A stretch of 64,000 nucleotides of DNA from an uncultured Acidobacteriota bacterium (lineage in GTDB: Bacteria > Acidobacteriota > Thermoanaerobaculia > Multivoradales > SZUA-115), in contig CAWDVR010000005.1 in the NCBI GenBank assembly GCA_963805975.1, positions 352,001 through 416,000 of the forward strand. Reading direction: 5' to 3'. Shown piece by piece: positions 6,437 to 16,335 of the stretch. The notes below the pieces were generated by a model, which was given only the letters and a program-made list of their open reading frames with translations, was not told the origin of the DNA and ran no database searches. The position numbers were made by a program, and so were the translations under genes. How positions within the stretch are numbered: position 1 is the first letter of the stretch; each line of letters opens with the position of its first letter.

Positions 6437-6695
6437 GGTGAATCCTCCTGGTATGCGGGGGCGTGGTCGTTCGGGCGGTATTCGGCTCGCCTGGGGAGCT
6501 TGCACATAGAGAGCGGGAGCTCCGAAGATGGACAGCGCAGGCCTCGGCGTCCTGCTAAGAGAAAACGGATCGGGGCGGAGCTTATACAGGTTCCCCGCCG
6601 CCTGGGAAGAGCCATTTCTTGAACGCCGTACGCCGGCTTCGTGGCAGGGGTGTGACGGCGCGGGCTAACCTACGATGGCCGCTGTCTTTTCGCTC

Positions 6696-7467
6696 TCAGG
6701 TGGCCTTGCGGTGCAGGTGGTGGGCGGTGGCCTGGTCGCGGGGGCGGACCACGATCTCGTCCACGTTGACGTGCGGCGGGCGGGTCGCCGCCCAGACGAT
6801 GCAGTCCGCCACGTCCTCGGCGGTGAGCGGCGTCAGGCCGCGGTAGACCGCCGCGGCGCGCTCGGCATCGCCCTCGAAACGGACCAGCGAGAACTCGGTT
6901 TCGACCAGGCCTGGGGCGATGTCGGTCACCCGCACCGGCTGCCCGAGGAGCTCGAGGCGCAGGGTGCGGGTGAGGGCGCGTTCGGCGTGCTTGGCGGCGG
7001 TGTAGCCGGCGCCGCCGGCGTAGGTCTCGAAGCCGGCGATCGAGCCCACGTTCACCACGTGCCCGTCCCCCGAGGCGAGGAGCGCCGGCAGCAGGCCACG
7101 GGTCATGCGGAGCGTGCCCAGCACGTTGGTGTCGAACATCTGCCGCCACTTGGCCTCGTCGGCCTCGCCGATCGACTCGAGGCCCACCGCGCCGCCGGCA
7201 TTGTTGACCAGGAGGTTCGACCGCCGGCACCGCCGCCGTGAAGGCGGCGACGCTCGCCGGGTCGGTGACGTCGAGCGGCAGGGCCCGGCCGCCGATCTCG
7301 GCCGCCAGCTTCTCCAGGCGGTCGAGGCGCCGGGCGCCGGCCACCACCTCGAAGCCCGCCGCGGCCAGGGCACGGGCGGTGGCCGCGCCGATGCCGGAGG
7401 AGGCCCCGGTCACGACCGCCACCTTGCGCCCCACGACCTTGTGTTGCGTCTCGCTCCCGCCGGGCAT
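6696..7467 (-). CDS. Short-chain dehydrogenase/reductase (YdfG-like), one frameshift near 7220
   Basis: TGASSGIG in one frame; LVNNAG and YxxxK (YTAAK) in the other. Confidence 0.85.
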
Positions 7468-8684: not shown

Positions 8685-11441
<2,757 letters not shown>

Positions 11442-11456
11442 AGGGGAGGCTGCGGC

Positions 11457-11999
11457 GTGGCAGGGGTCGTCACCGCGGTCAGCGTCGGCTCCACGCACGC
11501 CTTCAGCAAGGTGAACGTGGGCAGTGTTCGGCTCCTTGCGGGGAAGGGCGTCGAAGGCGACGCGCACATGGGCGAGACGGTGAAACACCGCTCGCGCGTG
11601 GCCCAGGACCCCACCCAGCCCAACCTCCGCCAGGTCCACCTGATCCACGCCGAGCTGCACGACGAGCTGAGCGCCGCCGGCTTCGACGTGGCCGCCGGAC
11701 AGATGGGCGAGAACATCACCACCCGCGGCATCCGCCTGCTCGAGCTGCCCACCGGCACCGGGCTCCGGGTGGGCGACACGGCGGTGATCGAGGTCACCGG
11801 CCTGCGCAACCCCTGCGCCCAGTTGGACCACTTCCAGCAAGGCCTCCTCGCCGCCGTCCTGGGCCGTGACGAGGACGGCAACCTCGTCCGCAAGTCCGGG
11901 ATCATGGGTGTAGTGAGGGCCGGTGGAGAAGTGCGGCCTGGAGATGCGGTACAAGTCGAGCTGCCTCCGGAGCCGCACCAGGCGCTGGAGCGAGTGTGA
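11457..11999 (+). CDS. MOSC domain protein
   Basis: GVEGDAH, RQVHLI, GENITTRG, RNPC motifs. Confidence 0.88.
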   Translation: MAGVVTAVSVGSTHAFSKVNVGSVRLLAGKGVEGDAHMGETVKHRSRVAQDPTQPNLRQVHLIHAELHDELSAAGFDVAAGQMGENITTRGIRLLELPTGTGLRVGDTAVIEVTGLRNPCAQLDHFQQGLLAAVLGRDEDGNLVRKSGIMGVVRAGGEVRPGDAVQVELPPEPHQALERV

Positions 12000-12158
12000 G
12001 CGCGTTTCCGGGGACGCCTTATCCGGGTCCTCGACGGCGACCTGAAGAGCTATTCCGGGTCTTTCTCTCGCGTTCTGACCGCGGCCGAGGGACGCGGAAG
12101 TTGGGTTGCTGGTAGGGTGCGGGCTTCAGGCCCAAAGCTCAACCTCCAGGAGCCCCCA

Positions 12159-12713
12159 ATGTCCATCCTCAGCAACCGCTTCGAGAACGCCGCCGCCGAG
12201 GCTGTCGAGTACGTGGCCATGCTGCGCGATGCCCTGGGTTCCCGTGACCCTCTGGAAGTCCTCGAGTCCACGCCTGCTGCCGTCGGGCGGGCGGTGATCG
12301 GGCTCTCCGTGGAGCAGGAGGCGACGCCCGAGGCGCCCGGGAAGTGGTCGGTGCGGCAGGTGGTGCAGCACCTCGCGGACTCGGAGCTGGTGGGGGGCTT
12401 CCGCTTTCGGATGGTGCTCGCCCACGAGGCGCCGGAGCTGCCGGGCTACGACCAGGATCTGTGGGCGGAGCGCCTGGGGTACCGGGACGCGGACATCCCC
12501 ACGACTCTGAACGACTTCGCGGTACTGCGGCGGGCCAACCTCCGGCTCCTGCATCGAGCCTCGCCGGAGGATCTCCGGCGGGTGATGCGGCACCGGGAGC
12601 GGGGCGACGAGCCCCTGGGGCAGATGATCTGGATGTACGCCGGGCACGACCTCGTGCACCTGGCCCAGATCGACCGCATCCGGCGGGCGGTCGGGGCGGC
12701 CGAGGCTATCTAA
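12159..12713 (+). CDS. DinB-family protein
   Basis: GKWSVRQVVQHLADSE..GHDLVHLAQI; AGGAG RBS. Confidence 0.85.
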   Translation: MSILSNRFENAAAEAVEYVAMLRDALGSRDPLEVLESTPAAVGRAVIGLSVEQEATPEAPGKWSVRQVVQHLADSELVGGFRFRMVLAHEAPELPGYDQDLWAERLGYRDADIPTTLNDFAVLRRANLRLLHRASPEDLRRVMRHRERGDEPLGQMIWMYAGHDLVHLAQIDRIRRAVGAAEAI

Positions 12714-12735
12714 CAGGGGCGGGTGGGGGACCTAG

Positions 12736-12847
12736 AAAAAGCCCCGTGTCGTGGAGGGATACGACACGGGGGGAGGAGAGGGAGCTGAAAGAGTTTGGCA
12801 AAGCCCGAAGGCCTTGAAGGCGGGCTCAGCTCCCACTGTTCCCGCCT
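12736..12847 (-). ncRNA. Candidate structured small RNA (~112 nt)
   Basis: Extended -10 upstream, 5' stem, 9-bp pseudoknot pairing, cUUCGg hairpin, 11-bp terminator stem plus UUUUU; no credible ORF. Confidence 0.65.
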
Positions 12848-12853
12848 CGCTGG

Positions 12854-12862
12854 ATCATAACA
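12854..12862 (-). promoter_or_regulatory. Extended -10 promoter (TGnTATGAT) of the candidate sRNA
   Basis: TGTTATGAT on the minus strand; predicted +1 is the A at 12847. Confidence 0.55.
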
Positions 12863-12915
12863 GCCGGCCTCGGCGTTCCGATTCCCGCTGCCTCCGGGCG
12901 GGTACAATCTCTCCC

Positions 12916-13890
12916 ATGCGCATCTTTCTGACCGGCGCCACCGGCTACCTGGGTGGCGCCCTGGCCCGGCGGCTGGCCGCCGACGGGCACGAGGTCCGGG
13001 CCCTCGTCCGCCCCGGCCGAGACCTGCAAGCTCTTGTCAATGCTGGGGTTACGCCGTGTACCGGCGACATCGCCGACCGCGCGTCGATGCGCGAGGGCAT
13101 GTCCGGGGCGGACTGGGTGATCCACGCCGCGGCCTACGTGGAGCTGGAAGGGCCGCGGGAGGCCATGGAGCGGGTGAACGTCCAGGGAAGTGAGAACGTC
13201 GCCTCCCTGGCACACAAGCTGGGGGTGGGCCGGTTCCTCTCCGTCTCCTCGATCGCCCAGTTCGGCGGCAGCCCGGAGGACGGCTCGGCCGGCCACGAGA
13301 GCTCGCCGGTGCTCCGCCCGTTCCCCAGCCTCTACAGCGAGACCAAGCACGCTGGCCAGGAGCGCATCCGCCAGTGGACGCGCCAGGGCCTGGCCCTCAA
13401 TACCGTCTTCCCGTCGCTGATCTACGGCCCGCCCGGCAAGCGCCTGGGCTCGAACGCGGTGCTGCGTACCATGGCGCTGGGCCGGTTCCCGGCGCTGGTG
13501 GGGGGCGACCGCAAGACGAGCTGGGTCTTCCTGGACGACGTGGTCGAAGCGATGCTGCGGATCGTGACCCAAGCCCCGGCCGGCCGGGACTACGTGCTCG
13601 CCGGCGAGATCACCACCGTCCGCGACCTCACCCACCAGGTGTGCCGGCTGGCGGGGGTGAAGCCGCCGCGGCTCGAGCTGCCGCTCGCGCTGGCACGCGC
13701 CGCGGTGGCCCTCGGCGCGCCGCTGGCGAAGCTCTTCGGTGCCCGGCCGCCGCTCACGCCCGGCCAGCTCGCGAGCCTCTCCCGGCACTGGGCCTTCGAC
13801 GACACACGGGCCCGCCAGGAGCTCGGCTGGGCCCCGCGCCCGCTGGCCGAGGGGCTGCCACCGACCGTGGAGTTCCTGCTGCGCCCATAG
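12916..13890 (+). CDS. NAD-dependent epimerase/dehydratase (HpnA/dihydroflavonol reductase-like)
   Basis: TGATGYLG, HAAA, YSETK; TACAAT 7 nt before the ATG. Confidence 0.88.
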   Translation: MRIFLTGATGYLGGALARRLAADGHEVRALVRPGRDLQALVNAGVTPCTGDIADRASMREGMSGADWVIHAAAYVELEGPREAMERVNVQGSENVASLAHKLGVGRFLSVSSIAQFGGSPEDGSAGHESSPVLRPFPSLYSETKHAGQERIRQWTRQGLALNTVFPSLIYGPPGKRLGSNAVLRTMALGRFPALVGGDRKTSWVFLDDVVEAMLRIVTQAPAGRDYVLAGEITTVRDLTHQVCRLAGVKPPRLELPLALARAAVALGAPLAKLFGARPPLTPGQLASLSRHWAFDDTRARQELGWAPRPLAEGLPPTVEFLLRP

Positions 13891-13900
13891 AATCACGTCC

Positions 13901-14269
13901 ATGTTCACGATCTTCAAGGACTACGACTTCGCCGCCGCCCACGCCATCCGCGGCCATCAGGGCGGCTGCCAGAACCTGCACGGCCACAACTACCGGGTGC
14001 GCGTCCACGTCGCCGCCCGCACCCTCGACGCGCTCGGCATGGTGGTCGACTTCGCCGACTTGAAGAAGGTGCTGGCCGAGGTGCTCGACCCCTTCGACCA
14101 CCAGGTCATCAACGAGGTGCCGCCGTTCACCGAGCGCAACACCACCGCCGAGCTCCTGGCCCAGTACGCTTACGAGGAGACGGCCCGGCGTCTCGACGAC
14201 GGCCGGGTGCGCGTGGCCAAGGTCGAGGTCTGGGAGAACGACAGCTCCTCGGCCGCCTATGAGCCCTGA
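13901..14269 (+). CDS. queD: 6-carboxytetrahydropterin synthase
   Basis: FAAAH..CQNLHGHNY, GMVVDF, TTAE, VWEN; adjacent to queE. Confidence 0.93.
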   Translation: MFTIFKDYDFAAAHAIRGHQGGCQNLHGHNYRVRVHVAARTLDALGMVVDFADLKKVLAEVLDPFDHQVINEVPPFTERNTTAELLAQYAYEETARRLDDGRVRVAKVEVWENDSSSAAYEP

Positions 14270-14275
14270 GCTCCT

Positions 14276-14974
14276 ATGAGCCCCGAGATGGCGGCCGGCG
14301 CCGCTGGCACGGCGCAGGCCCTGCCCAGGGAGCGGCGGGTGAAGGTCAACGAGATCTTCTACTCGCTCCAGGGCGAGTCCACCTTCGCCGGCCGGCCCTG
14401 CGTGCTGGTGCGCCTGACCGGCTGCCAGATGCGCTGCACTTGGTGCGACAGCGAGCACAGCTTCTACGAGGGCCGCTGGATGGGCCTCGAGGAGGTGCTG
14501 GCGGAGGTGGCGGGCTTCGGCTGCCCGCTGGTCGAGCTGACGGGCGGCGAGCCCCTGCTGCAGCCGGGCGCGCTGCCGCTCCTCGCGGCGCTCGCCGATG
14601 CCGGCTACGAGGTGCTGCTCGAGACCGGCGGCGGGCTCGACGTCGCGGGCGTCGACCCGCGGGTGCGGCGGATCGTCGACGTCAAGTGCCCGGGGAGCGG
14701 CGAGGCGGCGAACAACCACTGGCCGAACCTCGACCTCCTCACCCGGCGCGACGAGCTGAAGTTCGTGCTCGCCTCCGAAGAGGACTACCGCTGGGCGCGC
14801 GACCTGGTGCTGGCGCGTGGCCTGGCGGCGCGTTGTGAGATCCATTTCTCACCCGTCTGGGGCGCGGTCGAGCCGCGCCAGCTCGCGGCCTGGGTGCTCG
14901 CGGACCGCTTGCCGGTGCGGGTGCAGGTGCAGCTCCACAAGCTGCTGTGGGGGGCCGACGCGCGGGGCGTGTGA
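14276..14974 (+). CDS. queE: 7-carboxy-7-deazaguanine synthase (radical SAM)
   Basis: EIFYSLQGE, CQMRCTWCD, TGGEPLLQ, QLHKLLW. Confidence 0.92.
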   Translation: MSPEMAAGAAGTAQALPRERRVKVNEIFYSLQGESTFAGRPCVLVRLTGCQMRCTWCDSEHSFYEGRWMGLEEVLAEVAGFGCPLVELTGGEPLLQPGALPLLAALADAGYEVLLETGGGLDVAGVDPRVRRIVDVKCPGSGEAANNHWPNLDLLTRRDELKFVLASEEDYRWARDLVLARGLAARCEIHFSPVWGAVEPRQLAAWVLADRLPVRVQVQLHKLLWGADARGV

Positions 14975-15060
14975 GGCGTGACGAGACGGGAACAGCCGGC
15001 TCTTTTCCTTGCGTGCTCGCTTGCGGCAAAGGTAAGATCGCGAGCGAGGGAGACTCCGAG

Positions 15061-16335
<1,275 letters not shown>

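Follow-up and report, generated by a model that had tools for sequence, protein, structure and literature searches.

What does the minus strand encode between the DinB_2 and epimerase genes of this acidobacterial genome, where a run of helices ends in an intrinsic terminator, and what might its product do? The initial annotation had drawn four helices, both CCUCC tracts and the terminator here, and all were confirmed on the minus strand at the places given for them. The features are listed below in the numbering of the window, the whole 64,000-nt stretch of DNA analysed.

12736..12850, minus: predicted small RNA (sRNA) of about 112-115 nt; match to covariance model R1 at 12736-12853 (104.8 bits), with +1 inferred at 12850-12847
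12880..12886, minus: -35 element GGGAATC, SigH/SigR-type (GGAAT = 12885-12881)
12859..12861, minus: -10 element GTT, 19 nt after GGAAT and overlapped by TGTTATGAT
12841..12847, minus: P1 5′ strand AGGCGGG (sequence reading and covariation)
12826..12834, minus: P2 (pseudoknot) 5′ strand GGGAGCUGA, located within the loop of P1; GGGAG(C/U) in 114/120 homologues
12818..12824, minus: P1 3′ strand CCCGCCU (sequence reading and covariation)
12799..12816, minus: P3 hairpin CAAGGCC-UUCG-GGCUUUG, of varying length among homologues
12780..12788, minus: P2 3′ strand UCAGCUCCC, holding the first CUCCC, masked on P2 formation (pair counts)
12772..12779, minus: linker UCUCCUCC, candidate seed 1; single-stranded when the pseudoknot forms
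12736..12771, minus: intrinsic terminator, 11-bp stem (12771-12742) and U-tract (UUUUU, 12740-12736)
12760-12753, minus: terminator loop AUCCCUCC, candidate seed 2
12159..12713, plus: DinB_2 protein gene, convergent neighbour, between the RNA and aconitase (8685-11441) at this locus
12916..13890, plus: NAD-dependent epimerase gene (Pfam PF01370), divergent neighbour, context only

The locus and its distribution

Both flanking genes, DinB_2 and the NAD epimerase, lie on the plus strand, and therefore the terminator at 12736-12771 is fed by no minus-strand gene, as had been noticed at the outset. It is the sole terminator called within 12000-13600. Across 94 loci, the nearest upstream gene is on the opposite strand to the RNA in 81, while the nearest downstream gene is convergent in 63 and co-oriented, of mixed kinds, in 23, with none called in 8; coding sequence overlaps the RNA in a single locus. 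The epimerase is the upstream divergent neighbour in 66 of the 94 loci and aconitase the downstream convergent neighbour in 50, often at most 40 nt from the terminator. An ATG frame of at least 8 codons occurs in just 5 of 121 RNAs, so a small peptide is unlikely. The RNA thus has the marks of a trans-acting sRNA: its own promoter, its own terminator, no coding content and independence of its neighbours. Promoter, terminator, homologues and gene orientation together support the independent structured RNA gene that the initial annotation had proposed.

The surrounding plus-strand cluster (8685-16335) contains acnA, MOSC, DinB, epimerase, queD, queE and citrate synthase genes. Aconitase, epimerase, queD and citrate synthase recur near the RNA in relatives, which places queuosine genes among TCA genes. 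Elsewhere in the window (6670-7467, minus), a short-chain dehydrogenase-like gene runs over two reading frames, reflecting a frameshift or a sequencing error.

To define the range of the RNA, we searched relatives by sequence and by structure. BLAST (E < 1e-4) finds a single copy in 34/60 relatives, and the covariance model (E up to 0.01) finds the RNA in 44/60 same-order relatives, 43 of them below 1e-4. The model matches cover ten of the twelve families in the order, with 0/6 in one family. The syntenic intervals of nine genomes lacking a BLAST match yielded a homologue in one. Most members of this one order thus carry the gene, once per genome. When 150 genomes from the class and another 150 from the phylum were searched, strong matches occurred in the same order alone. 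Matches in other orders are weak, with 11/17 in one family (one of these 11 from the unpublished genome G064, counted only); inspected, they have the C/U linker and the terminator in common with the RNA, and the knot is absent.

A pattern search with the 3′ core matched 116 stretches among 185,579 species. Of the 116, the 80 titled matches listed comprise 56 from Thermoanaerobaculia or taxa within it, 23 from other or unspecified Acidobacteriota and 1 from Deltaproteobacteria, which makes Acidobacteriota 79/80 of the titled matches among those listed. This points to Thermoanaerobaculia as the probable class of the window. Viral contigs gave 0 matches, and no phage carriage was seen. Because homologues were gathered by the core, part of its invariance follows from the search; outliers found by the model vary it slightly. 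At one locus the RNA is followed, about 60 nt further on, by a degenerate second copy (L147:273-383, 35.6 bits).

Three estuary metatranscriptome runs contain contigs with a relative 92% identical over 100 nt. These contigs (248-1304 nt) overrun one or both RNA ends, leaving ends and strand unreadable; they may reflect DNA carry-over, the runs perhaps belong to one campaign, and we did not count them as evidence.

Helices and the predicted pseudoknot

The minus-strand fold has a z-score of -4.35, and 0/200 shuffles are equally stable. Within it, UCAGCUCCC is complementary to GGGAGCUGA as a perfect 9-bp P2, the two strands lying 38 nt apart with the UUCG hairpin between them. When 75 of the 121 unique homologues are aligned by sequence only, 91.8% of cells pair and double-sided changes occur in 21/32 pairs, a number that 0/500 shuffles of this alignment reach and from which slid registers are far off too. 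Homologues with compensatory changes, the check named at the outset, were thus found, in 44/60 relatives. The U-run is kept in 120/120 homologues and the terminator stem, which has no bases in common with P1-P3, covaries. RNAalifold picks P2 and the terminator independently.

The evidence for P2 was then weighed by itself. On the model-fitted alignment (101 matches), P2 is 96.5% paired with double changes in 4/9 pairs, and these counts are unbiased by the model because P2 is absent from it; one pair reads UG in 66 rows, UA in 17, CG in 16 and never CA. A tree-aware test re-dealt the substitutions on a tree of 100 rows, leaving out the weak second match at L147. Where P2 pairs vary (four pairs), 31 mismatches were counted and 107 expected (P about 0.014); P stayed below 0.002 for P1, P3 and the terminator. 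A conservative, home-made tree-based G-test resembling R-scape gave no pair at E<0.05, with the P2 pairs far from it; its 13 best-ranked pairs are all proposed pairs. The GGGAG/CUCCC pairing is nearly invariant among homologues. We take P2 to be real, though it rests largely on invariant bases and its support is weaker than that of P1, P3 and the terminator. The pseudoknot-capable 5′ domain of the initial annotation is supported.

An H-type knot requires a short first loop and non-overlapping helices. P1 and P2 use separate bases, and most homologues have a first loop of 2-7 nt. The P1 state with P2 stacking is better than the best nested fold in 80/98 homologues at an assumed penalty of 7 kcal/mol and in 49/98 at 9.6 kcal/mol; the rod-like fold that hides the linker is therefore close in energy. 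The linker is unpaired only about 40% of the time in the nested ensemble and free in the pseudoknot state, while the terminator loop is unpaired with a probability of about 1.0, so that conserved candidate seeds are accessible.

The GGGAG strand is missing and the 3′ module kept in 6/120 homologues (L018, L021, L030, L042, L117, L153). Since the 3′ module persists there, we regard it as the core and the knot as an accessory domain. Three of these loci (L018, L117, L153) lack the GGAAT/GTT box and have a different long-range helix, whose end lies immediately ahead of CUCCC.

The promoter and a putative SigH/SigR-like regulon

A GGAAT-N18/19-GTT box lies upstream of 112/120 homologues, compared with 0/1564 control windows from the same loci. 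The box was used in no homologue search pattern, and is missing at 8/120. Of the 114 homologues that could be parsed, 85 place the start of P1 8-11 nt beyond GTT. The SigH consensus of C. glutamicum is given as GGAAT-N18-19-GTT, with +1 about 10 nt past GTT, in PMC10012870, and the SigR consensus in PMC3489674 is close to it. By the former numbering and the position of P1, the transcription start that had been placed at about P1 is right within 1-3 nt. The promoter assigned with it did not hold: the extended -10 TGTTATGAT is present in the sequence, but its TGnTAnnnT pattern is kept in only 2/112 homologues, and no sigma-70 promoter was called. The RNA promoter is thus likely to be read by a SigH/SigR-type stress sigma factor. 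In one clade (L048, L055, L060, L063), the -35 element lies within an inverted repeat, ATGGG..CCCAT, where a regulator might bind.

A scan of 15 sigma proteins of the genome gave one whose best family is TIGR02947 SigH, at 210.8 bits and so below the NCBIfam cut-off of 251.55. Its gene is followed by one for a 78-aa HxxxCxxC protein, best matched by RsrA (TIGR03988) at 53.5 bits, below the cut-off of 62.5.

L176:1420-2418 (G000:C5:529991-530989): genes for the SigH/SigR-like sigma (1420-2103) and the RsrA-like zinc anti-sigma (2182-2418), with GGAAT-N18-GTT between them

An orthologue of this sigma is present in 58/60 relatives, and the box before the anti-sigma gene, between the two genes, is found in 25/30 loci; sigH-rshA of C. 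glutamicum has the same layout with an internal promoter, according to PMC3489674. We infer from three independent lines that the SigH-like protein is the sigma for the RNA promoter.

Genome-wide, the box is not enriched (37 occurrences versus 32-47 at control spacings). Intergenic boxes before a gene number 16 versus 1-9 at control spacings, by our own gene calls. The 20 annotated box-following genes include ftsH, lon, clpP, clpX, secA, Hsp20, DnaJ, trxB, rpmE and terC, and the box is also found ahead of the rRNA operon and msbA-like genes. The box precedes clpX in 21/30 loci (3 unparsed), with 0-2 at control spacings, and trxB in only 5/26 parsed loci. This implies a regulon of actinobacterial thiol/heat type in the lineage, as read from boxes and protein matches. 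It resembles those of SigH-RshA and SigR-RsrA in its consensus, its sigma with zinc anti-sigma and its clp, dnaJ and trxB members, as covered in PMC10012870 and PMC3489674. Unlike those actinobacterial systems, the regulon here would belong to Acidobacteriota and have an sRNA as a well-conserved member. A proteostasis regulon of SigH/SigR-RsrA type would thereby be exposed in this phylum with the RNA among its best-conserved members, the box being kept at 112/120 RNAs, a set selected by the RNA itself, compared with the clpX and trxB figures above.

No box was found in the dnaK or groES regions. A gene resembling hrcA precedes grpE-dnaK-dnaJ (G000:C3:653792-658570), and a CIRCE-like inverted repeat precedes groES (G000:C4:521821); the chaperone operons seem to be controlled by HrcA, not by the SigH box. 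In the window, a GGAAT-N18-GTT box at 38401-38426 (plus), some 310 nt ahead of the 16S rRNA gene, is a possible stress promoter for rRNA; the rRNA operon downstream (38740-43969) contains two tRNAs.

Candidate seeds, related RNAs and possible function

The RNA matches no Rfam family in the scan that had been proposed as a check, rRNA and tRNA being the only families of the window at gathering, and at E up to 10 its region gave only sub-threshold noise of miRNA type. Twenty homologue loci searched at E up to 1 gave no match to Acido-1, Acido-Lenti-1, cuckoo or RydC and, apart from one weak sX13 score, only noise of the same type; seven divergent or sister loci matched no family at gathering. 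Acido-1 and Acido-Lenti-1 (RF01686, RF01687), presented in PMC2864571 as non-coding motifs, come from the same phylum. The literature searched gave no description of the RNA, although motifs outside Rfam could sit in supplements; Acidobacteria are not treated in the main text of PMC5737381 or PMC8632094.

The initial annotation had suggested RBS-targeting regulation as in cuckoo-type sRNAs. The cuckoo / alpha-r14 / CcsR RNAs, as described in PMC4615179, are alphaproteobacterial and consist of 2-4 adjacent hairpins, each with CCUCCUCCC. Our RNA resembles them as a stand-alone, putatively stress-linked sRNA with a CCUCC anti-Shine-Dalgarno-like motif in a hairpin loop and a fixed motif on variable stems. 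Unlike in cuckoo RNAs, the motif occurs in one loop (UCCCUCC) and one linker, and the 5′ half is a predicted pseudoknot in Acidobacteriota; the P1 and P3 loops carry no CCUCCUCCC-type motif, which is confined among the loops to that of the terminator. Membership among the cuckoo RNAs therefore fails on architecture and range as well as on Rfam.

RydC has a conserved pseudoknot that is needed for stability, as described in PMC4337610. Both are sRNAs with a conserved pseudoknot, a U-tail and an Hfq host. RydC has a 5′ seed, whereas the candidate seeds here are 3′ of the knot and C/U-rich, with one copy masked by the knot, and the knot encloses an extra hairpin. Membership was rejected on the lack of Rfam similarity and on P1 beginning at about +1, with no 5′ seed ahead of the knot. 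GsrN of Caulobacter, as reported in PMC5869019, is driven by the ECF stress sigma EcfG (GGAAC/CGTT), acts through a C-rich loop, activates katG and is restricted to Caulobacteraceae. The ECF-stress-sigma promoter and the C-rich loop are shared, whereas the promoter here is of SigH/SigR type instead of EcfG and the same text describes no pseudoknot for GsrN. The sX13 RNA of Xanthomonas, also about 115 nt with C-rich loops, represses mRNAs with G-rich motifs near their starts, according to PMC3771888. It differs in having three stem-loops with 4C loops and no pseudoknot (RF02232); it was the sole sRNA family with any score, 26.5 bits in 1/20 loci against a gathering value of 50, and was rejected. 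Pairing of C-rich tracts with G-rich leaders is reported for sX13 and GsrN and, in the review PMC8383071, for several other sRNAs. On best reading, ours is an undescribed, real sRNA family that is predicted to work like these C-rich sRNAs.

The anti-Shine-Dalgarno-like tracts that had drawn attention to the locus are present and conserved among homologues, though the way these were gathered accounts for part of the conservation. Variation is lowest in CUCCCUCUCCUCC and in the loop CCCUCC. The complements of the seeds are the Shine-Dalgarno words of the genome, whose 16S rRNA ends in GAUCACCUCCUUU: GGAGG occurs in 651 start windows versus 121 control windows, and GGAGGAGA in 29 versus 5. The genome also has an hfq gene. 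Perfect complementarity to the core extends to 11 bases in five of its leaders and to 12 or more in none. The leaders of gltA, grpE, dnaK, clpP, clpX, trxB, sigH, dnaN and ferredoxin in relatives contain no conserved extended match, so that RBS targeting, proposed at the outset, stays a prediction; those of ferredoxin score above background in close relatives. Genes for signal-peptide proteins were considered as targets, since they make up 13/29 of the GGAGGAGA leaders, but they were rejected because 114/251 AAGGAG leaders belong to them too, an effect of strong Shine-Dalgarno sequences.

We then propose a model, to which we assign a probability of roughly 0.55, in which the RNA is a stress-induced sRNA of the SigH/SigR type whose C/U seeds cover the ribosome-binding sites of several mRNAs, probably lowering their translation. 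Release of the sigma from its anti-sigma under stress is known for SigR-RsrA and SigH-RshA. Heat or thiol-oxidative stress would here free the sigma from the zinc anti-sigma, and the RNA would be made with that regulon. P1 and P2 would form together, giving an H-type pseudoknot in which the 5′ end is paired and by which the RNA is stabilised, like RydC. GGAGG/GGAGA Shine-Dalgarno sequences may be bound by the UCUCCUCC linker and by the UCCCUCC loop of the terminator, with Hfq on the U-tail aiding the pairing, and 30S loading would be blocked. The C-rich precedents sX13 and GsrN, together with Hfq, the complements of Shine-Dalgarno words and the RydC-like knot, favour such a pairing sRNA.

A quite unlikely variant is that the RNA broadly competes with the anti-Shine-Dalgarno tail of 16S rRNA as a general translation brake of the SigH/SigR response, with the knot as a gate. 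P2 would mask the first CUCCC, and melting by heat or remodelling would extend the seed from 8 to at least 13 bases. It would explain why GGGAG/CUCCC is invariant, why the seeds fit strong ribosome-binding sites of the ordinary kind, why no single conserved target emerged and why six variants lost the knot but kept the 3′ module. The absence of a 12-base leader match and of a conserved site in the nine gene families counts against the pairing model and gives some weight to this variant, and likewise to one in which a SigH-induced RNA displays C/U-rich single strands on a knot scaffold to titrate a pyrimidine-preferring RNA-binding protein, with no mRNA pairing. Rho, ribosomal protein S1 or a KH protein are candidates for such a decoy. 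We consider it unlikely. The core barely varies over about ten families yet has no conserved mRNA complement, the nearly invariant paired GGGAG/CUCCC fits a sequence read-out, and CUCC is repeated two to four times as in protein sponges; however, the tracts are exact complements of the genome's Shine-Dalgarno words, and the intrinsic terminator with its U-tail and Hfq fit a pairing sRNA. C-rich multi-loop sRNAs of known mechanism also pair with mRNAs (PMC8383071, PMC3771888 and PMC5869019).

The position of the RNA, opposite the 3′ end of aconitase, with aconitase as neighbour in 50/94 loci and the epimerase in 66/94, raises the idea of a cis-antisense RNA that cuts or uncouples read-through along acnA - epimerase - queD - queE - gltA under stress. 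No plus-strand U-tract follows the hairpin, and acnA transcripts could run through. We give this little credence, because perfect pairing in cis needs no conserved sequence while the seeds are the most conserved part, and because the RNA is kept when its neighbour changes (DinB here; other or co-oriented genes downstream in 23/94). It seems similarly improbable that the GGAAT/GTT box serves another sigma and that the RNA is a constitutive or otherwise regulated structural RNA with no role in stress: the box does precede the rRNA operon, secA and msbA-like genes, is lacking at 8/120 homologues and is not found at dnaK and groES, but it matches the published SigH/SigR consensus and is conserved ahead of clpX and of the anti-sigma gene. 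Finally, riboswitches such as the fluoride class show a comparable layout, an H-type knot around a hairpin with a terminator after it, and a ligand-binding pseudoknot could in principle control the terminator as a cis-acting riboswitch or attenuator. This is extremely improbable. The downstream gene is convergent in 63/94 loci and otherwise of mixed kinds where co-oriented, the terminator stem uses no bases from P1-P3, no Rfam riboswitch matches, and the conserved bases lie in pyrimidine tracts instead of joining regions; the gene orientations at the 94 loci exclude a 3′ UTR product and, in effect, a riboswitch.

If the preferred reading, a SigH/SigR-induced pairing sRNA, is true, a sigma factor of this type has an RNA repressor arm, as sigma-E has. 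The RNA would join three features that are known only apart in the cited work: the pseudoknot scaffold of RydC, the anti-Shine-Dalgarno seeds of cuckoo and sX13, and the ECF-sigma control of GsrN. The sRNA family is new and order-wide; its lineage, large and mostly uncultured, lives in soil and sediment and has few catalogued RNA regulators. Another order contains a conserved sister RNA (L249-L252, L254, L257, L259-L261, at about 1501-1625), with no Rfam match in the two loci scanned; the pseudoknot is absent from it, and its layout is CCUCCUCCUUUCG followed by a hairpin with a CCCCACCCC loop and a U-run.
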